From Candidatus Microgenomates bacterium (GTDB lineage Bacteria > Patescibacteriota > Microgenomatia > UBA12405 > UBA6130): DNA of 64,000 nucleotides. Made by a program: the position numbers and the translations under genes. The notes below the pieces were generated by a model, which saw only the letters and a program-made list of their open reading frames with translations, was not told where the DNA came from and ran no database searches. The stretch lies in the NCBI GenBank assembly GCA_015485895.1, contig WFSR01000012.1:3201-67200 (forward strand), written 5' to 3'. Shown in pieces: positions 1-20,169 of this stretch (within the stretch, counting starts at the first letter, position 1; every line of letters starts with the position of its first letter).

Positions 1-46
1 AGAAGAAGCATGGCATGACTCATCTTGGCTGAAAATAAAATTTTTT

Positions 47-634
47 TTGGATGACATTAATCAAGAGGAAAAAAGTAGAAAAAAAATTTCTATTTTAAGC
101 GATTTATCTTTAAGACTTGATCCAGAAAAAACAATGAGAAATTTATCAAAAAAATTTGGCTGGCTTCCATTCAACGACAGGTTAATAAAAAACTGGGAAA
201 AAGGAGTCGGAAAAAATCTTTATTCTCCACCATATAAAACCCAAGACTACAAAACTTACAGAAAAAGACTCTTTAAAAATATATGGATAAAAGAGGCTAT
301 TTGGAGCAACTCTTTTAAACCAATAAACCCAGAAAAGGATTCTCCGCGTGATTTAACTAAATTGCCAATAAATATCCGCGATTATTATGCATTAGAAATG
401 CTGCCCACTTACATCTATTTTATTTCTCGTAAAGAGAATGACTCTAAACTTGACTCTTTAGAGGAAATAAGACAAATGGCAAGAATCAATCCAATTGAAG
501 CCTATTTTAATCTCAGAAGAAGTTATCCCCAAGAAAAAAAGCTTCTAAATAAATTAGAAAAGCAAATTAAAAGACAGGCACCTTTCACTTTCTCAATAAT
601 TAAAGTTTATCTGAATAAACAATGGATCTGCTAG
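47..634 (+). CDS. hypothetical protein, first gene of the low-GC island
   Basis: 195-aa ORF with ATG at 47 in the ~33% GC region. No motif I recognise. The island may extend upstream beyond the window start. Confidence 0.35.
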   Translation: MDDINQEEKSRKKISILSDLSLRLDPEKTMRNLSKKFGWLPFNDRLIKNWEKGVGKNLYSPPYKTQDYKTYRKRLFKNIWIKEAIWSNSFKPINPEKDSPRDLTKLPINIRDYYALEMLPTYIYFISRKENDSKLDSLEEIRQMARINPIEAYFNLRRSYPQEKKLLNKLEKQIKRQAPFTFSIIKVYLNKQWIC

Positions 635-1320
635 AAATAGCTTTAAAAAGCAGAAGTTCCGATCGAATAATGACTGCAATTGAAGATAGTTTGCCAAGAG
701 ATTTTAAAGATCGAGCAGGATCAAACAGAGTGTCTATGGCCCAAGAGTTAGTTGAAAGAAAAATAGTCCCCATCGTCATCAAGCCAGAAGGTCTGCTAGC
801 AAATGGATTGGAAGTTGTAACAACCGGATTAAAAAAAAGAGGTGTAAAGATTATTTCAATAGAAATTATTGATCATCCTGATTTGAACACTTGGTTTATA
901 AGATACAGAAACGTAATTGAGCTATATTCTGAAGATTTCGAACCAATCCTCCCAGATCTTGCGAAACTAAATGGGGAAAATCCATGGGGAATAGTCACCA
1001 TAAAATGCGGTCCTGAATTAGATTTAACTAGACTAAAAAAGGAAATCATAGGAGGAAGCGGAGAAGAAGGAAAAAGCTCAATAAGGAGTAAACTTAAATC
1101 CCTGATCGCCAAGGCAGGCTTTTACAATGGAAACAATCCAGCCCTAAGAGAAACAGTCTTTCCAAAAAGAACACTACCCGAAAACCGGAGAACATTTAAT
1201 GGAGTTCATTGTCCTCGAACCACAGAAGAAGCCATAAGAGATTTAGCAATACATCTTGGCGAACCTGACTTAGACAAGTTACTAAATATAAGCACGAAGC
1301 TAACAAAATCTAGATATTAG
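622..1320 (+). CDS. nucleoside diphosphate kinase-like protein (divergent, with insertion)
   Basis: IVIKPEG...G.EVV..GLKKRGVKI resembles the NDK N-terminal I(I/V)KPDG motif. NGVHCPRTTEEAIRDLAIHL aligns to the NDK catalytic-His segment N.VHGSDS.ESA.REI. At 232 aa it is longer than a typical 140-150 aa NDK. Confidence 0.45.
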   Translation: MDLLEIALKSRSSDRIMTAIEDSLPRDFKDRAGSNRVSMAQELVERKIVPIVIKPEGLLANGLEVVTTGLKKRGVKIISIEIIDHPDLNTWFIRYRNVIELYSEDFEPILPDLAKLNGENPWGIVTIKCGPELDLTRLKKEIIGGSGEEGKSSIRSKLKSLIAKAGFYNGNNPALRETVFPKRTLPENRRTFNGVHCPRTTEEAIRDLAIHLGEPDLDKLLNISTKLTKSRY

Positions 1321-1347
1321 CCCAAATTCTTTTTATAATATTCAATC

Positions 1348-1914
1348 ATGAAAAAAATAATCTTTTGGACCAGCAACCCAAATAAATTAGAGGAGATAAG
1401 ACTTTTTCTAAAAGGAACTGACTACCAAGTAACTCAGCCAGAAAAAATAGAAGAAATAAGGGAAATTCAAGCTAATGACCCAATCGAAGTGTTTGAAGAT
1501 AAACTAACAAAGATAAGCAAGCTTGTTTCTGGACCAGTAATAGTGGACGATTTTTCTTTTTCAATTGAAAAACTTAATGGTTTTCCTAGCCCTTATGCTA
1601 AGTATGTGGTAAAAACAATCGGCATAGAAAATATATATAAATTGGCTAAGGGCGAAAAAGCAGTAATGAAGTCCTATATAGGATACTGCGACGAAAAAAA
1701 GCAATGCAGGATATTTGTAGGCAAGCTAGAAGGAAAAATTATCGACAACCCTAGAAAATTCAAGGAAATTAAAAAAAACACTCCTCTAAATAGCATTTTT
1801 ATCCCGAAGGGCGAAAAAGAAACCTTAGAAGAAATTTTTGCAAAAAATAAGAACTTTAAGAATCACCGAAAAATAGCTTTAGAAAAATTACTAAGTTATC
1901 TTTTAAATAATTAA
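1348..1914 (+). CDS. Ham1/RdgB-family non-canonical purine NTP pyrophosphatase
   Basis: N-terminus IIFWTSNPNKLEEIR matches the Ham1 A(T/S)GNxGKxxE phosphate-binding motif. The 188-aa size fits the family. Confidence 0.7.
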   Translation: MKKIIFWTSNPNKLEEIRLFLKGTDYQVTQPEKIEEIREIQANDPIEVFEDKLTKISKLVSGPVIVDDFSFSIEKLNGFPSPYAKYVVKTIGIENIYKLAKGEKAVMKSYIGYCDEKKQCRIFVGKLEGKIIDNPRKFKEIKKNTPLNSIFIPKGEKETLEEIFAKNKNFKNHRKIALEKLLSYLLNN

Positions 1915-1937
1915 TTGTTAAAATTAGTCTAAACAAA

Positions 1938-2564
1938 ATGATTACAATCAAAGCAAAAACTCCAGGTAAAGCATGGCTAAAAGCCTGCAAAACAGTTACG
2001 GAGAAAGGGAAACATATAAAGGATGACGATGTGTTGCTAAAAGAGGTTATTGATTTATTTTTAGAAATCGAGCAAGCCGCAGAAAAAGACTCAATCATAA
2101 AAAAACATGGTGACAAGAAAATAATTAAATGGATGATTGAAGAAAACTTTTACGGCTCTAAATCAGTATTAAATTGGGGTTACTGTTATGGTCTGAGATT
2201 AAGAAATTATCTTGGCATAAACCAAATTGATAAGGTTATAGAAAAACTTAATAAAAAGCCCGAGTCAAAATCAGCAACAATAGTAACAATGGACCCAAAG
2301 GTAGATTTTAGTGGCCATATGCCATGCATTGTCGCCTTAGACTTCAAAATCAGGGAAGGCAAACTTCTAGCTACCGCATTTTTTAGAAGCCAAGACGTCG
2401 GTAAAAAAATGTATGCGGATATTTTAGCCCTAGGAAAAATACAAAAGGAAGTTGCCGAAAAAACAAGAACTAAACCTGGAAAGCTTAAAATTTTCATTTC
2501 TTCAGCTTATATTTACGAAACAGAATTTAATAAAGTTAAAGAATTGCTGAAAAATGTTAACTAA
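1938..2564 (+). CDS. thymidylate synthase / dCMP-dUMP hydroxymethylase-fold enzyme (short form)
   Basis: Three TS-fold motifs are present: HMPCIVALDF matches the P-C-H catalytic-Cys region of ThyA; FRSQDVGKKMYADILAL matches QRS.D..LG.PFNIASYALL; SSAYIYE matches GDAHIY. At 208 aa it is shorter than a canonical ThyA. Confidence 0.6.
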   Translation: MITIKAKTPGKAWLKACKTVTEKGKHIKDDDVLLKEVIDLFLEIEQAAEKDSIIKKHGDKKIIKWMIEENFYGSKSVLNWGYCYGLRLRNYLGINQIDKVIEKLNKKPESKSATIVTMDPKVDFSGHMPCIVALDFKIREGKLLATAFFRSQDVGKKMYADILALGKIQKEVAEKTRTKPGKLKIFISSAYIYETEFNKVKELLKNVN

Positions 2565-3204
2565 AAACCAAAAAAAACAATTAGAAAGAATTCTCGAAAA
2601 GAGTTTTAAGGGGACTTTTGAGCTAGGCGGAGGAAAAGAGTATCGGTTCTTTCATGGAATTCAGGTAGCAAAATTTGCTCTAAAGATAGCAAAAAAAGAA
2701 AGTCTTGATCTGGATTTAGATGCTCTTTTCGTAGCCGCTCTTTTCCATGATGTTGGAAAAATCGAAGCAGTCAACGAAAAGGGAATGATTGATTATCAAT
2801 CACAAGCCAATAAAAACCATGTTGATATTGCTGCTCAGAAATTAGAATCAATAATAGGCAAAGCAATTAAAGATAAAGATCTAATCAGGAAAAGTAGTCA
2901 AATAATCTTAGAAAGCAAAGAGGAAAACCCAAAATTAATAGAGGCCAGAGTTTTAAAAGATGCTGATGAATTAGGTAATTTTGGCTACCTGCAAATCTGG
3001 CGAACCCTTACCTATGCTGCCTTAGCAAAACTAAACTTAGCAGAAGAAATAGAATATTGGAAAAAGGAAGGGGAGGGTAGTCGAAAAAAACTTTTAGAAA
3101 GGCTTCGATATTCAATCAGCAAAAAAGTTGCTAAAAAGAGATTCGAAAAAAGCAAAAAATTCTTTCAGGAACTAGAAAGAGAAGCTCGAGGAGATGATTT
3201 TTGA
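2554..3204 (+). CDS. HD-domain metal-dependent phosphohydrolase
   Basis: H...HD signature LFHDVGK preceded by a His-containing helix (FFHGIQVAKFAL). 216 aa. Confidence 0.65.
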   Translation: MLTKNQKKQLERILEKSFKGTFELGGGKEYRFFHGIQVAKFALKIAKKESLDLDLDALFVAALFHDVGKIEAVNEKGMIDYQSQANKNHVDIAAQKLESIIGKAIKDKDLIRKSSQIILESKEENPKLIEARVLKDADELGNFGYLQIWRTLTYAALAKLNLAEEIEYWKKEGEGSRKKLLERLRYSISKKVAKKRFEKSKKFFQELEREARGDDF

Positions 3205-3213
3205 ATTCGATAA

Positions 3214-4287
3214 ATGGACAAAAATTCTGGAAAGATATTGACTCCGCTAATTAATAAAGCCTTAAAACACAATCAGGAAAGGACATTTTTTTGGCCAAAT
3301 CAAAATCGTGAATGGTTAGATTTTGTTTTGAGTGTAGTAGAAAAAAGGAAAAATAAGCCAAAAAACATTAGAATATTAATAATTGGAGGTGTTTTTTATT
3401 CATGCTATATTGCCGCAAAGGGATACTACACTACTTCCGTAGAAAAAAATCCTCTTGCAAGTATTTCGCAACTATATACAGCTTGGTTAATAGCCAGCGG
3501 CTACAGCAAAAACCAAGCCATAGCTAGATCCTTTTTGCTTGATTTAGTAGGAGAAAGAACAAATCCTCATAAAAGGGAGAGAATAACTATTCCTGAAAAA
3601 AAATATCTCCGAGCTCTGAATAGGTTTAAAAAATTTCTATCCTTAAGGGACATAGAGACAGCTCAAGAAATTTTCAATAAAATGCTTGGAATTACAAAAA
3701 AGAAAGACTGTAAGTCCAAAATTTATTTAAATCTAATTAAAAAGGGTATTGGACTGTCAGGATTTAATAATGCCAGCTTTCGACTACCAAATAAAATCAT
3801 TACCAAAAACATCAAAACCTATTCAGAAAAAAAGCCAGAAAAATTTGATCTTATAATTAGTACTAATGTCATCGACTTTTTTCCTACAGTAGAAAACTTT
3901 CTCTTTACTATATTTCCTTTATTGGAAAAGAATGGTATTTTAGAAATAACAACTTACAACCAAGAATTGAGCAGGAAAATAAAAGACATTTTTCCCGAAT
4001 TGAAAATTAGCAAAAATAGAAAAAGAAGAATAGGAAAAGCGCGTTTATTAAAAAAAATCTCCGCCAATAACTACCTTGAAGTTGAAAAAGACCTTATTTT
4101 GGGAAGAAATGTCTTTCTTATCAGGAGAAAAGAAATTAAAGAGCAATTAATAGAAAAAATCCCCTATTGGGTCAGAGAGCTTTTATTAAAAAACCGCTTT
4201 CACTCAAGCTTTTCTTTATTTAGAGATCAATCTTGGTATTTCTCTATAGAAAACGGAAAATTGACTGAAGTTAAAAAGAAAAAATGA
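3214..4287 (+). CDS. putative class I SAM-dependent methyltransferase-like protein
   Basis: ILIIGGVFYSCYIA glycine-rich motif-I-like segment and DLIISTNVIDFF, LLEKNGILEI motif II/III-like segments. Weak; the family call is by pattern only. Confidence 0.3.
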   Translation: MDKNSGKILTPLINKALKHNQERTFFWPNQNREWLDFVLSVVEKRKNKPKNIRILIIGGVFYSCYIAAKGYYTTSVEKNPLASISQLYTAWLIASGYSKNQAIARSFLLDLVGERTNPHKRERITIPEKKYLRALNRFKKFLSLRDIETAQEIFNKMLGITKKKDCKSKIYLNLIKKGIGLSGFNNASFRLPNKIITKNIKTYSEKKPEKFDLIISTNVIDFFPTVENFLFTIFPLLEKNGILEITTYNQELSRKIKDIFPELKISKNRKRRIGKARLLKKISANNYLEVEKDLILGRNVFLIRRKEIKEQLIEKIPYWVRELLLKNRFHSSFSLFRDQSWYFSIENGKLTEVKKKK

Positions 4288-4853
4288 TCATAGTTCTAGA
4301 GGGCCTTCCTGGAGCCGGAAAAACAACAATAGCCAAACTTCTAAAAAGAGAACATTCTTTCGGAATGGTTGAGCAGATTATAATTGATCCCAAATCACTG
4401 AGAAAAGAGGGGGGAAAATTCAAAAATCCATACTTTGTCAATGATGAAGAAAAATGTTTTCTAGCAAAAAAATTAGCTAACAACCACAAACACGTAGTCA
4501 TGGATCGGAATTATATCTCAACTTTAGCCTTCAATTACGCAGCCAAATTTGATCCAAAAAATAATAGCTCATTCTCTATAGCAAGAAAATGGTATTCCAA
4601 AAATTATAAAAAAACTATTTTCCCTCCAGACCTCTATATTTACCTCCGGACTCCAATTCAATTTTGCTTTAGCAGAAAAAAACGCCGCGAAAATCCTGAA
4701 AATCCCTGGACGGACCCTGATCATCTCAAAAAAATGAAATACTTCTATGAGAATATATTTCCTATAATGGAACCGCAGGTGCCAAAAATAACTATTTCCG
4801 GAAAATTACCAATTAAAAATATCATTAAAAAGATAATCAGATGCTTAGAATAG
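4284..4853 (+). CDS. thymidylate-kinase-family (d)NMP kinase
   Basis: P-loop IVLEGLPGAGKTT at the N-terminus. DRNYISTLAFNYA resembles the Tmk DRY..S..AYQ motif. 4-nt overlap with the upstream gene. Confidence 0.55.
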   Translation: MIIVLEGLPGAGKTTIAKLLKREHSFGMVEQIIIDPKSLRKEGGKFKNPYFVNDEEKCFLAKKLANNHKHVVMDRNYISTLAFNYAAKFDPKNNSSFSIARKWYSKNYKKTIFPPDLYIYLRTPIQFCFSRKKRRENPENPWTDPDHLKKMKYFYENIFPIMEPQVPKITISGKLPIKNIIKKIIRCLE

Positions 4854-5962
4854 CCTACTTTCGAGACGGCCCCTTTTTGCCGCCACTAGAAGGCGGCTCA
4901 GAATCAATCCTAGGAATGATGAAAGGGATCGCTAAAAAAGCCGAAACCGAAGTATTTCTATTTCGCTGTTATCGAGGCTGGGATGATTATCGACTATATT
5001 TAAAGAAGCCTTTTAAAACAATTTTTATCAAGCCAAGCGATTTTTACACTAACTCAAGCCTCTATAAGCATCTAATCAAAAAATACAAAATAAATGTTTA
5101 CCACTTCGATAGCGCTGGGGCAATAAGCATTCAAGCTAATCTCGTCGGCAAAAATGTACTAAAAGTTTGGGAAGTACTCAATGTCAATCATACATTAATT
5201 AAGCGCACTGGAGGAAAAAGAAAAGAAATAAAAAAAGCTATTTTTTATGAATTAGAAGCCGCAAAAAAAGCTGGCTTAATCCTAGCTCGCTCGGAAAAGG
5301 ATAGAGATGATCTAATTAAAATAGGCATCGATAAGAGAAAGATTGCTCTATATCACGGATGCATTAGTCCCCAAAAATATGATTTTGTTCCTTTTAAAAA
5401 GAAAAAGGGGAATAGAATTTTGTTTCTAGGGAATATGTTTTATAAACCAAATGAAGAAGCTGTTAAAATTATTAGAAATAAAATTATTTCACCTGTTGTA
5501 GAAAAAAATCAAAAAGCAAAATTTATTTTTGTAGGCAACTACCCCAAAAACCTCTCTAAAGAGTTTAATAAATTTAAAAACGTTATTTTTACCGGCGGAA
5601 TAAAAGATATAAATTCAGAACTATCAAAAGCAAAAATTGCTCTTGCTCCTCTTAAATCCGGCTCAGGAACTAGGTTAAAAATTCTAACTTATTTAGCCGC
5701 AGGAATACCAACAATTGCTACTAATCTAGCCATAGAAGGTCTAAAAAGAGATATTAAAAAATTCCTAGTTATAGAAGATAATTTTCAAAAATATCCTCAG
5801 CTAATTACGAGGCTATTGAATTCTGGTTTTTCTGAAAAACTACTTCTCGAAGGAAGAAAGTGGGTTGAAAAGAATTATTCTTGGCAAAACGAGGCTCAAA
5901 AAATTCTAAACCACTATAAAAACTTCCTCTTGGGCCCAAATAGAGAATTAAAAATCGTATAG
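4841..5962 (+). CDS. GT-B fold glycosyltransferase (GT4-like)
   Basis: C-terminal domain ALAPLKSGSGTRLKILTYLAAGIPTIATNLAIEGL is the typical GT1/GT4 donor-binding region. It is the last gene of the low-GC island; GC jumps immediately after its stop. Confidence 0.55.
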   Translation: MLRIAYFRDGPFLPPLEGGSESILGMMKGIAKKAETEVFLFRCYRGWDDYRLYLKKPFKTIFIKPSDFYTNSSLYKHLIKKYKINVYHFDSAGAISIQANLVGKNVLKVWEVLNVNHTLIKRTGGKRKEIKKAIFYELEAAKKAGLILARSEKDRDDLIKIGIDKRKIALYHGCISPQKYDFVPFKKKKGNRILFLGNMFYKPNEEAVKIIRNKIISPVVEKNQKAKFIFVGNYPKNLSKEFNKFKNVIFTGGIKDINSELSKAKIALAPLKSGSGTRLKILTYLAAGIPTIATNLAIEGLKRDIKKFLVIEDNFQKYPQLITRLLNSGFSEKLLLEGRKWVEKNYSWQNEAQKILNHYKNFLLGPNRELKIV

Positions 5963-5971
5963 AATCAAAAT

Positions 5972-7096
5972 ATGCGGACGGGAGTAGCGGAATTTACCCT
6001 TGATTATGGCCGGTGCCCGCCGTGGCTTTTCCGGCGGATGGTGCGCTTGGGACGGGCGATTGGCATTGCTATTATCCGCGAATTTGGTCCGGAAGAATTT
6101 TTGCGCCGGCTGGCCGACCCGGTTTGGTTTCAGTCTTTAGGCTGTGTTTTGGCTTTCGATTGGAACGCTTCTGGGTTAACCACGACGACCTTAGGTGCTC
6201 TAAAAGTTGCTTTCCAAGGGCTAGAAAAGGATTTGGGGGTTTTCATTTGCGGTGGCAAAGGGAAAACTTCGCGGCGGACACCGGAAGAAATTAATAATTG
6301 GGGCTGGCAGTTGGGGTTAAATGAAAAGGTGGTCTGGCGCCTGGAATATTCTTCCCGGGCAGCGGCGAAAGTAGACAGCGCCTTAATTCAAGATGGCTTT
6401 CAAATTTACCACCATTCGTTTATTTTTACTAAAACTGGCCATTGGGCCGTGATTCAACAGGGGATGAATATCCAAAAAGGCCGGGCGCGCCGGTATCACT
6501 GGTGGGGCGATACCCAAAAGCAATTTATCGAAGAGCCGCATACCGGGATCAGTTCGCCGGTTGTTTTGTCAACGGTGCTTGATTTGACAGCAAAGAAAAG
6601 CCGCCAAAATCGGCAGGTAGGCCTTGAGGTGATTCAAAAGCCAAAAACTTTTCTCCGTGATTTAAAGGTGTTAACGGTAAAGTCGGGGGATTGGCAGTTT
6701 CGGGTTATGTCTCTGCCGGGGATCGAGTTTCATCATCATCCGGTAGAAAATGAATTCTTGTCGCCTCAATTGCGCCGGGCAGTAAATCAGGCTTTAATTC
6801 GCCAACCGACTACTTTTGAAAAGTTGTTGATGACCCCTGGGGTAGGGCCAAGAACGATTCGGGCTATTTCCCTGGTAGCCGAAATTATTTATGGGGCTAA
6901 ACCTTCTTACGAGGATCCGGCGCGCTATACTTTTGCTCATGGCGGCAAAGACGGGACGCCTTACTTTGTGGACCGCCAACAATATGATCGCACTTTAGCT
7001 ATTATTGAAAAAGCTTTACGCCAGAGCCACTGGCTACTTTTTCGGGAGCGCAGTCAGGCCTTACAACGCGCCACCCAAGTCTTTCATACTTCATGA
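5972..7096 (+). CDS. DUF763-family protein
   Basis: N-terminus MRTGVAEFTLDYGRCPPWLFRRMVRLGRAI matches the conserved start I recall for DUF763 proteins (mostly archaeal). High GC (~57%), distinct from both the island and the backbone. Confidence 0.5.
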   Translation: MRTGVAEFTLDYGRCPPWLFRRMVRLGRAIGIAIIREFGPEEFLRRLADPVWFQSLGCVLAFDWNASGLTTTTLGALKVAFQGLEKDLGVFICGGKGKTSRRTPEEINNWGWQLGLNEKVVWRLEYSSRAAAKVDSALIQDGFQIYHHSFIFTKTGHWAVIQQGMNIQKGRARRYHWWGDTQKQFIEEPHTGISSPVVLSTVLDLTAKKSRQNRQVGLEVIQKPKTFLRDLKVLTVKSGDWQFRVMSLPGIEFHHHPVENEFLSPQLRRAVNQALIRQPTTFEKLLMTPGVGPRTIRAISLVAEIIYGAKPSYEDPARYTFAHGGKDGTPYFVDRQQYDRTLAIIEKALRQSHWLLFRERSQALQRATQVFHTS

Positions 7097-15065: not shown

Positions 15066-15149
15066 AGTGGGACCAATAACTTGAAAGTGAAAAGTTTGAG
15101 TGAAAAGTGAAAAAGAAGTCTAAGCTAAAAATGGAGCTAGGAACTAGGT

Positions 15150-15341
15150 CAAACAAAATCCTAAATCCTAATGACCCAAATCCTAAACAATAACCAAATT
15201 ACCAGATGATTAAATGACCAAAACAAAAGAAGGATGACAAAGATGTTTAAAACATTTGAATTTTGGTCATTTGGTATTGTTTAGAATTTAGAATTTAGGA
15301 TTTAGGTAATTAGGTATTGCCCCGACGAATGTCGGGGCAGA
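15150..15341. repeat. copy A of the long-palindrome intergenic repeat family (core only, plus GC hairpin)
   Basis: The left arm caaacaaaatcctaaatcctaatgacccaaatcctaaac...aaatgaccaaaacaaaag mirrors the right arm cttttggtcattt...tttaggatttagg. A GC hairpin gccccgacgaatgtcggggc lies at the right end. About 85-90% identical to copy B at 19851-20086 and copy C at 30049-30283. Confidence 0.8.
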
Positions 15342-15381
15342 GGTGATTTGATTATTTTTCTTTAGATGCTAAAATACAGGC

Positions 15382-15702
15382 ATGGCAAATAATTTTAATT
15401 GGCACGACACTCGGGTAAAAGTAGGTGATGTTGTCCGGGTGGAATATTTAATTAAGGAAAAAGGGAAAGAGCGACAGCAACCTTTTCAGGGACGTGTGAT
15501 TGCTATTAAAGGCAATAGTTTAGCTAGTAAAACTTTTACCGTGCGGCGAATTGCTATCGATAGTATTGGCGTGGAGCGCATATTTCCAGTTCAATCTCCA
15601 TGGATTAGGGATATAAAAGTAGTTGGTAAACCAAGCAAAAAGGTTAAGAGGGCCAAACTTTATTACTTGCGCCAGCGGCATGGGAAAAAGGCCCGTCTTT
15701 GA
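15382..15702 (+). CDS. rplS: 50S ribosomal protein L19
   Basis: 106 aa. VGDVVRVEYLIKEKGKERQQPFQGRVIAIKG...RRIA is typical L19 sequence. Confidence 0.9.
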   Translation: MANNFNWHDTRVKVGDVVRVEYLIKEKGKERQQPFQGRVIAIKGNSLASKTFTVRRIAIDSIGVERIFPVQSPWIRDIKVVGKPSKKVKRAKLYYLRQRHGKKARL

Positions 15703-16060
15703 GAAAAAGACTTTTGGAGCCCAGGGCGAATCTTTAGCTGCTCAATTTCTTAAGAAACATAAGCTTACGGTTTTGGATCGTAATTTTCGGACCCCTTGGG
15801 GTGAGCTAGATTTAATTGCCAAGGAAAAGGATACTTTGGTTTTTGTGGAGGTTAAAACTCGGCAAACGGATAAGGCTGGTTACCCTGAAGAGGCAATAAA
15901 GAAATGGAAGGTAAGGCATTTAATCCGGGCTGCTTGGCTCTATACCCAAAAGCATCCCGACTTGCCCAGCCGTTGGCGTTTGGATGTAATTGCTATTCGC
16001 TATTCTGGAGGTCAGCCGGAAATTTGCTGGTACCAAAATATTTCTCCGCTCTTTAGTTAG
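15680..16060 (+). CDS. YraN/UPF0102-family putative endonuclease
   Basis: GAQGESLAAQFLKKHKLTVLDRNFRTPWGELDLIAKEKDTLVFVEVKTR matches the YraN core (GE..A..YL...G..IL.RN.R...GEIDLIA......VFVEVK.R). Start assigned to the ATG at 15680, overlapping the rplS end; the tracked ORF begins upstream at 15623. Confidence 0.65.
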   Translation: MGKRPVFEKKTFGAQGESLAAQFLKKHKLTVLDRNFRTPWGELDLIAKEKDTLVFVEVKTRQTDKAGYPEEAIKKWKVRHLIRAAWLYTQKHPDLPSRWRLDVIAIRYSGGQPEICWYQNISPLFS

Positions 16061-16306
16061 CTGTGTGTGTTGTTGGAGAATGCCAATGTTGGAAGCAGCT
16101 CATGAAGTAAAAAGTGGCTAGTTGAAAGAGAGGAGGAAAATAAACTAGCGATACTTGCTCCGACAAATATGACAAAAGTAACGATGGGTCATTTTTGATT
16201 TACTAATTATTCTAACATAAGGGGTGTTTTTAAAGAAACAAATGGTTATATTAGATTGTATTAATCTATAAAAAAGAAAAGTTATATAATATTTTAATTT
16301 AGAAAA

Positions 16307-16879
16307 ATGCACATGATCAGTCGCGCAAATATTATAATATTTAATGCAGTAAACCATTTTGCAGGAAACAATATTTTTGTAGATAAATTGGGAACACTTA
16401 TCGCACAATATCTGACAATAGTGTTTATATTATTCCTGATTTATTTGTGGTTTAACAAAAATAAAAAATTTGCTTTATACTCTGGATATTCGGCAATACT
16501 AGGGATTTTATTGAATTTCTTAATTACTTCGTTTTATTTCCACCCCAGGCCTTTTATGGATAAGATAGGCACTCTTTTGATTAAACATAAACCAGAAACG
16601 TCATTTCCCTCAGACCATACAACTTTCATGCTATCTATTGCTTTCATGCTCTTGTATTTTAAAAAAACTAGAAAAATAGGCATAGTTCTTTCCATGTTGG
16701 GAATTTTAGGTGGGATCGCAAGGATATTCTGCGGGCTTCATTACCCATTTGATATTCTAGGTTCAAGTCTTGTAGCTTTGGTTTCTTCTTTTATTATTTT
16801 TACCTTTAAAGATAAACTACGGAGATTTAATAATTTAGTTATAAATTTATACTCTAGGATTATAAAAAATGAAAACTAA
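16307..16879 (+). CDS. PAP2-family lipid phosphatase
   Basis: PAP2 motifs SFPSDHT and GLHYPFDILGS (the SGH and SR..H..D signatures) with multiple TM helices. First gene of the second low-GC island. Confidence 0.65.
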   Translation: MHMISRANIIIFNAVNHFAGNNIFVDKLGTLIAQYLTIVFILFLIYLWFNKNKKFALYSGYSAILGILLNFLITSFYFHPRPFMDKIGTLLIKHKPETSFPSDHTTFMLSIAFMLLYFKKTRKIGIVLSMLGILGGIARIFCGLHYPFDILGSSLVALVSSFIIFTFKDKLRRFNNLVINLYSRIIKNEN

Positions 16880-17891
16880 AATCTTTCACAAATATGTAGT
16901 TACACTCTTATTCTCGATTTTATTATTTGCAACTGGAATTAAAATACATTCAGCCTTAACTGCTCCCCAAGTCTCAGATTGGAATTATCACCAACTCCAA
17001 AAAATAGATCATTCTAAAAGGAATTTCTCATTTGCCGTTTTTGGCGATAATAAAAACTCTGTAAAAACATTTGAAAATCTTATATCAAAACTGAACAATG
17101 ATGATGTTCTCTTTGCTATTGATGATGGAGATCTGGTTTGGGATGGAGAGAGGGAAAAATTTAGATTTTTTCTAAATCAGGTTAAGGGTCTTAATAAACC
17201 ACTATTGACTGTTTTTGGCAATCATGAAGCAAAGGGAAACGGAAGAGATGCCTATTACAATTTATTTGGTCAATTTTATTATTCCTATTTCATAGGGAAT
17301 AGTTACTTTATTGTTTTAGACGATTCAAATGAAAAGAATCTTGATGATGCGCAATTTGCTTGGCTAAAAAATGAGCTTAAAAAGAGTCAAAAGTATAAAT
17401 ATCGTTTCGTCTTTATGCATGTTCCCCTCTATGATCCTCAAAATAACAGTACAACAATTCTTGCTCATGCATTAAAGGATAAAATATTTGCTAAAAAACT
17501 GAACGATCTTTTCGATGAAAACAAGGTAACCATGTTGTTTTGTTCGCATATTCATGGTTATTTCCGAGGAAAATGGGGAAAGACTCCGTACATAATTACG
17601 GGTGGCGGTGGCGCGGAGCTAATGGGAACCGACCCAAAACATTATTTTTATCATTATATTAAAGTAAATGTTAATGACAACTCTGTGCATTACGATGTTG
17701 TCAAACTAAAAAGTCCTGATTTTGAGTTATTGGATAGATGGACTCATGATGCTTGGATATACATTTATGCTTTTTTTGCAGTCCATTTTATTGATGCATT
17801 GTTGGTGATAACGCTAATTTATCTCAGTGTGTATATTATTTTCATAAAGAAAAAGTGGCTTGTTTTTAATCTTAAAAGAGATAAAAGGTGA
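16869..17891 (+). CDS. calcineurin-like metallophosphoesterase with C-terminal TM anchor
   Basis: Metallophosphoesterase motifs FAVFGDNKN (GD), DDGDLVWDG (GD-x-V) and FGNHE (GNHE). N-terminal signal/TM segment and a C-terminal hydrophobic tail. Confidence 0.65.
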   Translation: MKTKIFHKYVVTLLFSILLFATGIKIHSALTAPQVSDWNYHQLQKIDHSKRNFSFAVFGDNKNSVKTFENLISKLNNDDVLFAIDDGDLVWDGEREKFRFFLNQVKGLNKPLLTVFGNHEAKGNGRDAYYNLFGQFYYSYFIGNSYFIVLDDSNEKNLDDAQFAWLKNELKKSQKYKYRFVFMHVPLYDPQNNSTTILAHALKDKIFAKKLNDLFDENKVTMLFCSHIHGYFRGKWGKTPYIITGGGGAELMGTDPKHYFYHYIKVNVNDNSVHYDVVKLKSPDFELLDRWTHDAWIYIYAFFAVHFIDALLVITLIYLSVYIIFIKKKWLVFNLKRDKR

Positions 17892-18472
17892 TTAATATCT
17901 TAGCATTTATAACAAGTTTTATTAAAATTTCCAAATACTTTGGTGTTTTTATAGGCACTTTTATTGAAGGACCTACGGTAGGAATGTTAACGGGATCTTT
18001 AGCTAGATTGGGTTATCTAAATATTTACTTAGGTTATTTGGTTTATGTTATAGGGGATTTTACTGCCGATTGTTTATACTATGCAATTGGCTATCATGGT
18101 GGGACAGGCTTGTTAAAAAAACTTACTTTTTCATCAAAAACTTTAGCAAAAGTAAAAAAGAGCATGATCTTCTTTAATAATCATTCAAATAAAATAATCT
18201 TCTTTGGAAAACTGACACATTTCCTCGGATTGCCCATCTTGATAGGTGCCGGCTTAGCTCATTATTCTTGGAGGAAGTTCTTGGTTTTGGATTTAATCGC
18301 TACCTTAATAAAATCTGCTGTAATTATATCAATAGGCTTCTATTTAACATCTTTTTGGGTAGGGATAGACAATGCGATAAACTATGTTGGATTAACCATT
18401 ACCTTTTTGGCCACAATCCTTTTAGTTTATTTTTTAATTAAATTAAGTAACAAAAAGAGAAAGTTACCATGA
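17888..18472 (+). CDS. DedA/VTT-domain membrane protein
   Basis: GVFIGTFIEGPTV...G......GD resembles the DedA re-entrant-loop motif. About 5 TM helices, 194 aa. Confidence 0.5.
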   Translation: MINILAFITSFIKISKYFGVFIGTFIEGPTVGMLTGSLARLGYLNIYLGYLVYVIGDFTADCLYYAIGYHGGTGLLKKLTFSSKTLAKVKKSMIFFNNHSNKIIFFGKLTHFLGLPILIGAGLAHYSWRKFLVLDLIATLIKSAVIISIGFYLTSFWVGIDNAINYVGLTITFLATILLVYFLIKLSNKKRKLP

Positions 18473-19647
18473 AAAAAATTAAAGTATTAATAGCTAGCGA
18501 AACTTATCCACCAGATGTCAATGGCGCTGCAAGATTTACAGAAAATTTAGCTAAAGGCTTGGTATCAAGAGGACATAGCGTTGTGGTTATTGCTCCAGGA
18601 ACAAGATTTAGAGATGAGACAAGCAAGGAAAATATCAATCTTAAGGTATTTAGAATTGCATCAATTTCATTAAAACCTATACATCCCTATTTCAGAGCTG
18701 TTTTTCCAGAGGGTTTATATGGGAAAATTAAAAAAATTATAAAAGATTTTAATCCGGATATTATTCATATTCAGAATCATTTTCTTCTGGGGAGAACCTG
18801 CTTGAAAATAGCCAGAGAAAATGAAATACCTATAATAGGGACGAACCATTTTATGCCAGATAACTTATTAGAATATATACCCAAAATAGCCCATCCTTAC
18901 ATATCAAAGTATATGTGGAGTGATTTTATAAAAGTCTATAGTCAGCTAGATTATGTTACTGTTCCTTCTTATACCGCAGCAAGTATGCTAAAAAGATTAG
19001 GATTAAAAAATCAAGTCAAAGTGATTTCCAATGGGATTGATTTAAAGAAATTTAAGAATGTTAGGGTGAGTAATCGTGTCTACGTTAAATTCAAAATAAG
19101 GAAAGATTTATTTACTTTCATTTTTGTTGGCCGACTTGAGAAAGATAAAAACATTGATTTGGTCCTTGAAGCATCAAAACTGGCTATCAAAAAGAAGCCT
19201 TTTCAGGTTATTATTGTGGGCAAAGGGGCGGATGGGGAAAAACTGCAAAGATTATCAAGAGAATTAGGTTTGGGCAGAGAAATAATTTTTACCGGAGAAG
19301 TAAATAATAGCGAGTTAAATCAATTGCTTAGTTTAGCTCATGCATATATTGCCTCCGGTTCTGCCGAACTTCAGGGGATAGCAGTTATGGAAGCTATGGC
19401 TCATAAACTACCAATCTTAGCTCTTAACGCCGTTGCCTTACCTGAATTGGTTAAAGATGGAGTAAATGGCTTTCTCTTCAAGTTAGATAGCAATGATTTA
19501 GCTAAGAAAATGCTTAAGTTATTATCTCTTGACTCACAAAAATTGAAATTAATGGGCAAAAACAGTTTTGGAATTATTAAGCTACATAGTCAAGAAGAAA
19601 CATTAAAGAAGTTTGAAGATCTTTATAAAAAGGTAATAGGGAGCTAA
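18469..19647 (+). CDS. GT4-family glycosyltransferase
   Basis: EAMAHKLPILALNAVALPELVKDGVNGFLF is the GT4 EX7E region. The N-terminus has the typical GT4 Rossmann start IASETYPPDVNGAARF. Confidence 0.75.
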   Translation: MKKIKVLIASETYPPDVNGAARFTENLAKGLVSRGHSVVVIAPGTRFRDETSKENINLKVFRIASISLKPIHPYFRAVFPEGLYGKIKKIIKDFNPDIIHIQNHFLLGRTCLKIARENEIPIIGTNHFMPDNLLEYIPKIAHPYISKYMWSDFIKVYSQLDYVTVPSYTAASMLKRLGLKNQVKVISNGIDLKKFKNVRVSNRVYVKFKIRKDLFTFIFVGRLEKDKNIDLVLEASKLAIKKKPFQVIIVGKGADGEKLQRLSRELGLGREIIFTGEVNNSELNQLLSLAHAYIASGSAELQGIAVMEAMAHKLPILALNAVALPELVKDGVNGFLFKLDSNDLAKKMLKLLSLDSQKLKLMGKNSFGIIKLHSQEETLKKFEDLYKKVIGS

Positions 19648-19648
19648 C

Positions 19649-20086
19649 TGTTGAGGATCAAATAAACGTTCACACCTTCTGTTGAGTTATCAACACCTTG
19701 TCATCCCGCCCTTTCGTGAGAAAGAGCGGGATCTTCAGGGAGTGTGCCATCAATAATGGTGGTACGCCACCCAGCTGAAGATGAGCCCCCAAAGCTCCGA
19801 CGTGCGTCGGGGCGGGGCGGGCAAGTTCAACATGACGAGATATAAATTAAAAGCACCAAATCCCAAGCACCAATTTCCAAACAAATCCTAAATCCTAATG
19901 ACCCAAATCCTAAACCCCGACGTTCATCGGGGCAGGCAATAACCAAATTACCAAACGATTAAATGACCAAAACAAAAGAAAGATGATAAAGATGTTTTGA
20001 ACATTTGGATTTTGGTCATTTGAACATTATTTAGGATTTAGGATTTTGGTATTGTTTGTAATTTGGTGCTTGGAATTTGGAATTTG
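19649..20086. repeat. copy B of the composite repeat: 5' structured module (19649-19850) plus long imperfect palindrome (19851-20086)
   Basis: The 5' module shares gttgaggatcaaat.aac..tcac...tatcaacac...gtcatcc...ggatct.cag.ga.tgtgc.a.caataat.gtg.tacg.cac...gctgaagatg...atgacgaga.ataaa..aaagcaccaaa with copy C. Palindrome arms run aaagcaccaaat..caagcaccaa...aatcctaaatcctaatgacccaaatcctaaa || tttaggatttaggatt..ttggtgcttggaatttgg, centred near atgttttgaacat. Confidence 0.85.
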
Positions 20087-20097
20087 TTTTTTCTGGG

Positions 20098-20169
20098 TGC
20101 CGCCAGTGGGAATCGAACCCGCCTTTTCACCTTGAAAGGGTGATGTCCTAGCCGATAGACGATGGCGGC
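20098..20169 (-). tRNA. tRNA-Glu (anticodon TTC)
   Basis: Reverse complement gccgcca tc gtctatcggctaggac a tcacc cTTTCAAa ggtga ... gcgggttcgattcccac tggcggc a. Anticodon loop cuUUCaa. Glu-like D-arm. There is one A.C mismatch in the T-stem. Confidence 0.7.

Follow-up and report, generated by a model that had tools for sequence, protein, structure and literature searches.

A conserved gene cassette around a predicted cytosine-type thymidylate synthase-fold enzyme on an integrated genomic island of a Candidatus Microgenomates bacterium

We examined 64,000 nucleotides of a Candidatus Microgenomates bacterium (GenBank assembly GCA_015485895.1, contig WFSR01000012.1, positions 3,201 to 67,200; hereafter the window) and found that the first 6 kb belong to an integrated genomic island carrying a compact gene cassette. 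At the core of this cassette is a 208-aa protein of the thymidylate synthase (TS) fold (window 1938–2564, plus strand), and its active site points to a cytosine nucleotide as the substrate. Similar cassettes recur across loci of the candidate phyla radiation (CPR) of bacteria and of DPANN archaea. We propose that this mobile cassette re-routes a cytosine nucleotide by the logic with which T-even phages make glucosylated 5-hydroxymethylcytosine (hmC), a reading that draws on sequence and on analogy and that we would place slightly short of an even chance.

The 208-aa protein matches the Pfam thymidylate synthase family (PF00303, 5.6e-15). Its best NCBIfam model is TIGR03283, the methanogen-type thymidylate synthase, at 132.5 bits (cut-off 174.55), and it falls far under every cut-off of the bacterial ThyA models. 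Its 92 homologues, about 205 aa long, come from CPR bacteria (Collierbacteria, Vogelbacteria, Roizmanbacteria and others) and from DPANN or Asgard archaea. In E. coli ThyA numbering, which agrees with HMMER alignments to T4 TS and to the cytidine monophosphate (CMP) 5-hydroxymethylase MilA, the family keeps His207, Tyr209 and the core of a TS fold, catalytic Cys146 with the Arg166/Ser167/Asp169 block. Elsewhere the active site has changed: 76 of 81 homologues, the query included, carry Asp at position 177 (Asn in E. coli ThyA), His at 143 (Leu), Gln at 168 (Cys) and Phe at 165 (Gln). The five most distant have Tyr143/Leu168/Asn177, and Asp169 is invariant in all 81. When we classed 86 open reading frames (ORFs) out of 90 related loci at positions 143-169-177, His-Asp-Asp ('HDD') accounted for 64, Tyr-Asp-Asn for 16, Tyr-Asp-Asp for three and x-Asn-Asn for three, and in a neighbour-joining tree both the His/Asp/Asp and the Tyr/Asp/Asn classes are monophyletic.

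These positions have known consequences. Exchange N177D turns a TS from dUMP to dCMP (PMC13326640), and in viromes and metaviromes Asp177 tracks cytosine-modified DNA (PMC8670742). A hydrophobic L143 shuts out water, its loss correlates with hydroxymethylation, and hydroxymethylases carry Asp or Glu at this position (PMC13326640, PMC6400193). In the island protein the motif around the catalytic Cys is H-M-P-C, placing a polar, non-acidic His three residues before the Cys, and the Asp177 motif YADI aligns with VSDV of MilA in HMMER. The protein thus lacks the Asn177, the bulky hydrophobic residue at 143 and the curated equivalog score of a thymidylate synthase; of the marks of a (deoxy)cytidine monophosphate ((d)CMP) hydroxymethylase it has the Asp at position 177, a residue that in those enzymes serves to recognise cytosine and protonate N3, and lacks the Asp/Glu three residues before the Cys. 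A preliminary description of the same DNA had read the protein as hydroxymethylase-like, which fits the polar residue at 143 and misses the Asp/Glu signature. We predict from these residues a (d)CMP C5-hydroxymethylase or C5-methylase, and because position 143 is polar we give a hydroxymethyl product a shade better than an even chance.

The structural comparison runs in the same direction. A profile of the family finds MilA as its top match in the PDB (61 bits, against 49 bits for T4 TS), and the AlphaFold model of the 208-aa protein (predicted local distance difference test (pLDDT) 96.5; TS-fold matches at about 1e-15) superposes in Foldseek on MilA with a query TM-score (TMq) of 0.86 and a root-mean-square deviation of 2.4–2.8 Å, compared with 0.71–0.77 and about 5 Å for thymidylate synthases. 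MilA, from the mildiomycin pathway (PDB 5b6d/5jnh), shares the Asp at the specificity position and a Lys in place of Arg126; it differs in its length of 325 aa and in having Asp143 and Ala167 where the island family has His143 and Ser167, and identity is about 18%. The archaeal short thymidylate synthases of the TIGR03283 type resemble the island enzyme in length (about 200 aa), in lacking the folate-tail and small-domain insertions and in having Lys/Ser at 126/127. The island enzyme departs from them by Asn177 to Asp, Tyr143 to His, Leu168 to Gln and Cys165 to Phe, and stands in another clade and another gene neighbourhood. Sequence and model together lead us to regard it as a neofunctionalised, cytosine-type offshoot of archaeal short ThyA and not as a thymidylate synthase, as the preliminary description had suspected; Asp177, His143, the separate clade, the sub-cut-off TIGR03283 score and MilA as the top structure all bear this out.

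The phage 5-hydroxy-dCMP synthases (RB69 gp48, DLP3 gp80 and HY126 AfhB; PMC13326640), with their arabinosyl- or hexosyltransferases, likewise combine an Asp177 TS homologue with a clustered deoxynucleoside monophosphate (dNMP) kinase and glycosyltransferases. Their mark is D169N (PMC13326640), and in a profile alignment 9iqu shows RSQN at the Asp169 block. We rejected a 5-hydroxy-dCMP synthase for the island enzyme, which keeps Asp169; since D169N is absent, C5-hydroxylation is not expected.

Two minor classes of TS-fold protein deserve separate mention. Short proteins with Asn at both 169 and 177 occur at L077 8001–8699, L081 2414–3031 and L090 464–1102 (L numbers designate loci); since they join D169N to an Asn177 of the uracil type, they might act as 5-hydroxy-dUMP synthases. 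Tyr143 and Asp177 are combined in second TS-fold paralogues (L008 10650–11432, L062 2330–2971, L073 1059–1589) that stand one or two genes from a His143/Asp177 copy, which suggests different products for the two; being cytosine-type with a hydrophobic residue at 143, these paralogues are possibly dCMP methylases.

The case for a shared pathway comes from the neighbourhood. We called ORFs in 18 genome loci and 72 metagenome loci and labelled them by phmmer and BLAST clustering. Twelve loci carry, in near-identical order, a Ham1 pyrophosphatase, the TS-like enzyme, a methyltransferase-like protein, a kinase, a GT-B glycosyltransferase and then an HD or NUDIX hydrolase: the present one, L011, L012 (Micrarchaeota), L014 (Roizmanbacteria), L043–46, L053–55 and L057. 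All twelve have a His/Asp/Asp TS. A canonical nucleoside-diphosphate kinase (NDK; Pfam 1.2e-36) follows the cassette at eight of the twelve, on the opposite strand in seven. The methyltransferase, this kinase, the glycosyltransferase, HD, NDK and NUDIX, together with an aminotransferase and a dCTP-deaminase-like protein, accompany only the His143/Asp177 class (0 of 16 Asn177 loci); the glycosyltransferase family occurs at 11 loci, each time with an HDD-type TS. Ham1 lies within 6 kb of a TS-like gene at 47 of 88 loci. Several partners are also fused: TS to NUDIX (P0071), TS to methyltransferase (P0085), TS to Ham1 (L075, L076) and Ham1 to methyltransferase to a second Ham1. Synteny across phyla and fusions to the TS argue for one pathway rather than chance adjacency, and by this gene-content evidence we take the genes to form one conserved functional cassette. 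We found no paper describing this clade or cassette in the literature (MJ0757/TIGR03283, CPR/DPANN).

A commoner cassette, which we call variant A, surrounds the same His143/Asp177 TS class at L004–L010, L027–L041 and others (for example L005 7442–13886). It comprises a class I/II aminotransferase, a QueC-like PP-loop ATPase, an AAA_17 kinase, a dCTP-deaminase-like protein, two Ham1 proteins, a nucleoside 2-deoxyribosyltransferase-like protein and the Ham1-methyltransferase-Ham1 fusion, and is probably another modified-cytosine pathway. Around the Asn177/Tyr143 clade (L079–L089; for example L079 5074–9680) lie a radical SAM protein, a 339-aa protein, the TS, a QueC-like PP-loop ATPase and a pyruvate-kinase-barrel-like protein, making the pairing of TS with a QueC-like gene common to the His143/Asp177 and Asn177/Tyr143 clades.

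In the window the cassette is part of a sharply bounded block. Measured in 400-nt windows along the 64 kb, G+C content (GC) is 0.285–0.375 over positions 1–5965 and 0.46–0.52 straight after about 5965; the remainder has a mean of 0.40–0.48 with local peaks of 0.52–0.565, lower than the backbone of about 55% given in the preliminary description. That description had also placed the switch within 10 bp of the last stop, and it does lie there: the glycosyltransferase stop codon occupies 5960–5962 and the switch begins at 5972, a proximity that insertion at the 5′ end of the DUF763 gene explains. It had further counted seven consecutive same-strand genes. The tight packing stands, with overlaps of 4–13 nt or gaps under 30 nt; the count becomes eight plus-strand ORFs, the first partial, and the island is about 1.9 kb longer upstream. 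This upstream part comes from L001, a metagenome scaffold with the same locus that reaches 3.5 kb farther upstream than the window. There the low-GC block begins at about 1650, after the ClpB C-terminus and a 145-aa gene, and contains CYTH and NUDIX genes on the minus strand and the complete form of the first protein, of 355 aa.

A repeat search found a 44-nt direct repeat, an att-like core, whose left copy lies at L001 1650–1693 (about 1.9 kb upstream of window position 1) and whose right copy is window 5972–6015 (L001 9527–9570), the first 44 nt of the DUF763 gene. The two copies (n = 2) are identical at 43 of 44 positions, 7,877 bp apart, and each sits at a GC switch, the signature of site-specific insertion at the DUF763 5′ end. 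The low-GC block is well beyond chance and the repeat brackets exactly that block; with flanking direct repeats at its compositional break, as in integrative islands, it is a genomic island of 7,877 bp, integrated but non-autonomous. None of its ten genes encodes an integrase or recombinase, and it has no tRNA gene; the part of the island that lies upstream, where the preliminary description had suggested looking for integrase or phage genes, has none. Island GC is 0.325 against 0.46 for the backbone, whereas cassettes elsewhere match their flanking DNA (0.28–0.32). Its composition and relatives mark the island as foreign, from a low-GC CPR or DPANN donor. Horizontal acquisition, suspected from the start, is thus consistent with the att-like repeats, the difference in GC and the GC-matched cassettes of low-GC CPR/DPANN genomes. 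The backbone, with gatCAB, dnaE, a complete dcw/mur/fts cluster and LexA, is that of a CPR-type bacterium.

At two loci of Roizmanbacteria type, L053 (5565–7160) and L054 (5489–7024), a large serine recombinase (Resolvase, Recombinase and Zn-ribbon domains) stands beside the cassette and NDK, as it does at no other locus, a hint that such cassettes move on integrative elements. Within the present island, the NUDIX gene (L001 2386–2895) has a backbone-like GC of about 0.44, compared with about 0.32 for the remaining island, suggesting a mosaic origin. Window and L001 are identical over the island save for a single C indel at window 1761: Ham1 is intact in the window (188 aa) and frameshifted in L001 (4904–5466; 146 aa plus a remainder), which may reflect either misassembly or variation within the population.

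Each remaining gene of the operon adds to the picture. The kinase (189 aa, window 4284–4853, plus strand) is a P-loop enzyme of the thymidylate-kinase/deoxynucleoside-kinase superfamily, matching Pfam dNK (6.4e-13, 49.4 bits) and Thymidylate_kin (6.7e-10, 39.4 bits; cut-off 27) as well as phrog_761 'thymidylate kinase' (5e-21), and scoring 48.1 bits against the dTMP kinase equivalog TIGR00041, below its cut-off of 83.25. The family profile finds thymidylate kinase 2pbr first in the PDB (55 bits; dNK 47), and a GxPGxGK P-loop, DR..ST and a basic lid are invariant. Its predicted substrate is a C5-modified (d)CMP.

Upstream, at 622–1320 on the plus strand, lies an orphan of 232 aa that the preliminary description had called NDK-like. 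It has no match in Pfam, NCBIfam, PHROGs, the PDB or 5.8 billion proteins; an exhaustive search of 1.8 billion representatives gave two distant homologues only, pairwise BLAST against NDK is not significant (E 0.21), and the single-sequence AlphaFold model has a pLDDT of 36. The likeness emerges by profile–profile comparison: in hhalign, the small alignment of this protein matches the cassette-flanking NDK family with 96.3% probability (E 1.5e-9), residues 52–214 against NDK 7–134, with the catalytic His aligned in FNGVHCP. The earlier assignment thus corresponds to a likeness at the profile level, with no sequence match in Pfam, NCBIfam or the PDB. We presume from this alignment that the protein is the cassette's nucleoside-diphosphate kinase, and its gene seems to replace the flanking NDK found at other loci.

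The glycosyltransferase (373 aa, window 4841–5962, plus strand) is a GT-B, GT4-like protein (Pfam Glyco_trans_1_4, 4.5e-19; TIGR03087 93 bits, below cut-off), and its family profile has a sole PDB match, PglA-like (8e-4). By analogy with phages, we propose that it decorates the C5 substituent. The protein of 357 aa at 3214–4287 (plus strand) is a divergent class I methyltransferase-fold protein whose gene always lies beside the TS-like gene in the cassette. Its matches to Methyltransf_23/31/12 are sub-threshold and span residues 183–263, so that the methyltransferase likeness noted in the preliminary description holds for the C-terminal half of the class I domain only. Methyltransf_31 is matched by seven of eight family members (best E 9e-7), the family profile finds methyltransferases weakly in the PDB (OvoM, 0.0016), the glycine-rich S-adenosylmethionine (SAM) loop is degenerate (ILIIGGVFYS), there is an insertion of about 100 residues, and a homologue search with the protein returned one relative.

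The Ham1/ITPase-family nucleoside triphosphate (NTP) pyrophosphatase (188 aa, window 1348–1914, plus strand) matches Ham1p_like (PF01725, 2.5e-29, 102.9 bits), with all NCBIfam equivalogs under their cut-offs (best NF011396, 136 bits versus 203). What we take to be the purine base-stacking motif, FGYDP/FAYDS in the RdgB and Mj0226 references, reads PLNS here, and we propose from the sequence that the enzyme converts (d)CTP to (d)CMP or polices the pool. The HD/HDIG phosphohydrolase (216 aa, window 2554–3204, plus strand; Pfam HD 1.3e-10, TIGR00277 HDIG) has homologues at seven cassette loci, and NUDIX takes the same position in L014, L053 and L054. The Ham1, TS-fold, HD, kinase and GT-B assignments of the preliminary description all agree with these Pfam matches. 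The 355-aa protein, whose C-terminal part fills window 1–634 (plus strand; full gene L001 3123–4190), is peculiar to this island, none of the other cassette loci having it; it has no match in Pfam, NCBIfam, PHROG, PADLOC or the PDB, and by eye only its N-terminal SPPRTAST resembles a sulfotransferase PAPS loop.

Put together, the genes suggest the following pathway. Ham1, with the HD, NUDIX and CYTH hydrolases, would convert (d)CTP to (d)CMP and keep the canonical triphosphate low. The Cys of the TS-fold enzyme would attack C6 of (d)CMP, the cytosine being read by the Asp at the N177 position, and a one-carbon group would be placed on C5; the product is most likely 5-hydroxymethyl-(d)CMP because His replaces the water-excluding hydrophobic L143. 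The thymidylate-kinase-like kinase would make the diphosphate and the NDK-like protein the triphosphate, a polymerase would incorporate the modified nucleotide, and the GT-B glycosyltransferase would put a sugar on the hydroxymethyl group, with the methyltransferase-fold protein perhaps contributing a methyl group. Each substrate and product in this scheme, including deoxy versus ribo, hydroxymethyl versus methyl and the destination in DNA, is one that we infer.

The closest parallel is the T-even glucosyl-hmC pathway, in which the T4 gp56 dCTPase, gp42 dCMP hydroxymethylase, gp1 dNMP kinase, host NDK and alpha/beta-glucosyltransferases form the same functional sequence, again clustered. Shared are an NTP pyrophosphatase, an Asp177 TS-fold enzyme with a non-hydrophobic residue three before the Cys, a nucleoside monophosphate (NMP) kinase, an NDK, represented here by the NDK-like protein, and a GT-B enzyme. 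The preliminary description had drawn this parallel, and the conserved cassette, with its thymidylate-kinase-like kinase, GT-B and NDK, lets it be followed step by step. Unlike the phage pathway, the island is a small element of cellular CPR/DPANN chromosomes, with no viral relatives found; its pyrophosphatase is Ham1 (with HD, NUDIX and CYTH) and not of gp56 type, its TS-fold enzyme is the archaeal-type short form of 208 aa with His and not Asp at 143, its kinase is thymidylate-kinase-like rather than gp1-like, its glycosyltransferase is GT4-like, and it has an additional conserved methyltransferase-fold gene.

Two further points favour T-even-like routing of a cytosine nucleotide. Thymidylate kinase, which acts on a C5-substituted pyrimidine deoxynucleotide, is the nearest match to the kinase, and the island brings its own NDK-like gene, as would be expected if a triphosphate were the goal. 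In phages, a GT-B enzyme encoded beside a TS homologue is a recognised sign of pre-replicative DNA hypermodification (10.1101/2023.12.21.572611).

Several observations weigh on the other side. Position 143 is His and not Asp/Glu as in the T4 dCMP hydroxymethylase and MilA, making a 5-methyl product possible, and the signals for sugar specificity are split, with a dNMP-like Ser167 and a MilA-like Lys at 126. MilA, the closest solved relative, serves a nucleoside-antibiotic pathway rather than DNA precursors. The methyltransferase-fold protein has a degenerate SAM loop and no T-even counterpart; the glycosyltransferase is generic GT4-like, and the cassettes of L045 and L011 lie beside ordinary-looking glycan genes. 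Searches of IMG/VR viral contigs gave no cassette relatives, which leaves this gene set without a phage precedent. Ham1 and NDK could simply be syntenic housekeeping genes, the residue numbering depends on the E. coli ThyA, RdgB and Mj0226 reference sequences, and global replacement of cytosine in a cellular chromosome by horizontal transfer would be costly a priori. The sequence has no feature that shows DNA to be modified, and we consider DNA as the destination, a step taken by analogy, to have somewhat less than an even chance.

A different product would be a small molecule, a modified cytosine nucleoside or nucleotide (an antimetabolite, antibiotic-like compound or antiviral analogue) directed at hosts, competitors or phages, which we consider unlikely. 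The TS-like enzyme would then act on CMP as MilA or BcmA do, tailoring of the free nucleotide would fall to the glycosyltransferase and methyltransferase, its activation or self-resistance to the kinases, and release of the end product to HD or NUDIX. Profile and structure searches both give MilA as the nearest solved relative, and Lys stands in place of Arg126 as in MilA (PMC6400193). The linked methyltransferases are class I domains of small-molecule type, some of them fused to Ham1; variant A has an aminotransferase and a nucleoside 2-deoxyribosyltransferase-like gene of the MilB/BlsM family type, and tailoring that varies around a constant core is reminiscent of biosynthetic gene clusters. 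In bacimethrin biosynthesis a TS, a glycosyltransferase, a methyltransferase and a kinase follow a comparable logic. The glycosyltransferase-bearing cassette found here (variant B), however, has no N-glycosidase for freeing the base, where MilA has MilB as its partner, and instead carries kinases for nucleoside mono- and diphosphates; a dedicated NMP kinase and an NDK-like protein travelling with the island point to a triphosphate, a polymerase substrate. The kinase is thymidylate-kinase-like and thus of deoxynucleotide type, Ser167 is the dNMP-type residue, and the island has no transporter or resistance gene.

The sugar-related genes near some cassettes also have a counterpart in phages, which favours the T-even-like reading. 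At L011 a DegT-type sugar aminotransferase and three extra glycosyltransferases are interspersed among the cassette genes, and at L045 genes for nucleoside diphosphate (NDP)-sugar dehydratase/epimerases, an acetyltransferase and GT2 enzymes precede it. NDP-sugar enzymes similarly accompany some of the RB69/DLP3-type phage clusters.

That the island is a mundane salvage or thymidylate set is improbable. Here the TS-like enzyme would be an archaeal-type thymidylate synthase, perhaps working by way of 5-methyl-dCMP and subsequent deamination, the kinase would be Tmk, and Ham1, HD, NUDIX and NDK would be ordinary pool enzymes in a genome without de novo synthesis. The methanogen-type thymidylate synthase is the best NCBIfam model, and the Asn177/Tyr143 sister clade lies in partly similar neighbourhoods (the QueC-like gene; occasionally Ham1 or the kinase). 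Kinase, NDK, Ham1, NUDIX, HD and the dCTP-deaminase-like and deoxyribosyltransferase-like proteins are classical salvage functions, CPR and DPANN organisms rely on salvage, and the 64-kb window has no second thyA, thyX or tmk. Against this, the enzyme belongs to a monophyletic clade of its own, set apart by Asp177 and four coupled changes in the active site, some loci hold two cytosine-type paralogues, and the TIGR03283 and TIGR00041 scores are under cut-off; a housekeeping pathway would not occupy a recently integrated foreign island, and the glycosyltransferase and methyltransferase-fold genes conserved in the operon have no salvage role.

A defence or sanitation role, in which during infection the kinases and the four hydrolases (Ham1, HD, NUDIX and CYTH) would draw down or police the pool of (d)CTP or of modified nucleotides of phage type and the TS-like enzyme, glycosyltransferase and methyltransferase are accessory or chance-adjacent glycan genes, seems to us slightly more improbable still. 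The density of NTP hydrolases is unusual, the island is mobile, and PADLOC gives weak matches (kinase to VakA, 7.6e-12; NUDIX to PDC-S07, 4e-7). The dCTP-deaminase-like genes that adjoin P-loop kinases in variant A resemble dCTP-depletion defence. PADLOC has no strong match to any known system, though, and the synteny of TS, methyltransferase, kinase and glycosyltransferase across phyla, with TS fusions to NUDIX, Ham1 and methyltransferase, is hard to reconcile with accessory or chance neighbours. Known defence systems were rejected, the matches being weak and generic. A prophage remnant, also entertained in the preliminary description, is not supported and was rejected, since the island has no integrase, tRNA or phage gene and IMG/VR viral contigs gave no relatives to the TS, methyltransferase-like and glycosyltransferase family profiles and, to the kinase profile, one unrelated kinase of 23% identity outside any cassette. 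Among PHROGs, matches are significant for the TS and the kinase only, those of HD, the methyltransferase-like protein and the glycosyltransferase being weak (E 9e-5 to 7e-3).

The DUF763 gene itself (window 5972–7096, plus strand; Pfam DUF763, 1.4e-120; GC 0.46–0.52) is the backbone target of integration and lies outside the cassette; it adjoins a TS-like gene at this locus only. Its start is 9 nt 3′ of the last island gene, its native upstream region is now separated from it, and with that region lost it is probably expressed by read-through out of the island operon. The protein contains a helix-hairpin-helix-like segment, 'LMTPGVGPRTIRAI'. Ten substitutions fall within 80 bp of this gene (window 6521–6601) between the window and L001, against an identical 6 kb of island, a patch of local recombination or strain variation in the integration target.

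The window also contains a second low-GC island (15149–20078; GC about 0.31–0.35, about 4.75 kb), bracketed by imperfect direct repeats of about 150 nt (15149–15303 and 19876–20078; 86 nt at 92%, 40 nt at 93%) and adjoining a tRNA-Glu (20096–20169, minus strand). Its genes encode UPF0102/NERD-like, PAP2 phosphatase, metallophosphoesterase, DedA/VTT and GT4 glycosyltransferase proteins, and metagenome scaffolds break at its repeats.

The logic of the proposed pathway is known from phages; its components, its setting in CPR/DPANN cells and the extra methyltransferase-fold gene are new. To our knowledge, replacement of a base before replication followed by its glycosylation is known only from viruses. 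We regard it as doubtful, yet worth stating, that CPR and DPANN cells make a C5-modified dCTP pre-replicatively and carry glycosylated, possibly methylated, hmC in their own chromosomes. Similarly doubtful is the suggestion that the two cassette variants, one based on a glycosyltransferase and the other on kinase, PLP and PP-loop enzymes, are cellular counterparts of two phage hypermodification strategies, glycosylation and kinase/PLP-based amination (PMC8989533). If our proposal is correct, ultrasmall episymbionts would chemically mark their own DNA, in keeping with a life in which foreign DNA is taken up and broken down as a source of nucleotides. The His143/Asp177 proteins would be a new branch of the thymidylate synthase superfamily. 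The glycosyltransferases and kinases that accompany them would likewise be new DNA-modifying enzymes, and metagenomic DNA of this sort would need care when handled by methylation- or enzyme-based methods. If the product is instead a free nucleotide analogue, the cassettes would yield a new class of nucleotide natural products in organisms credited with almost no secondary metabolism.

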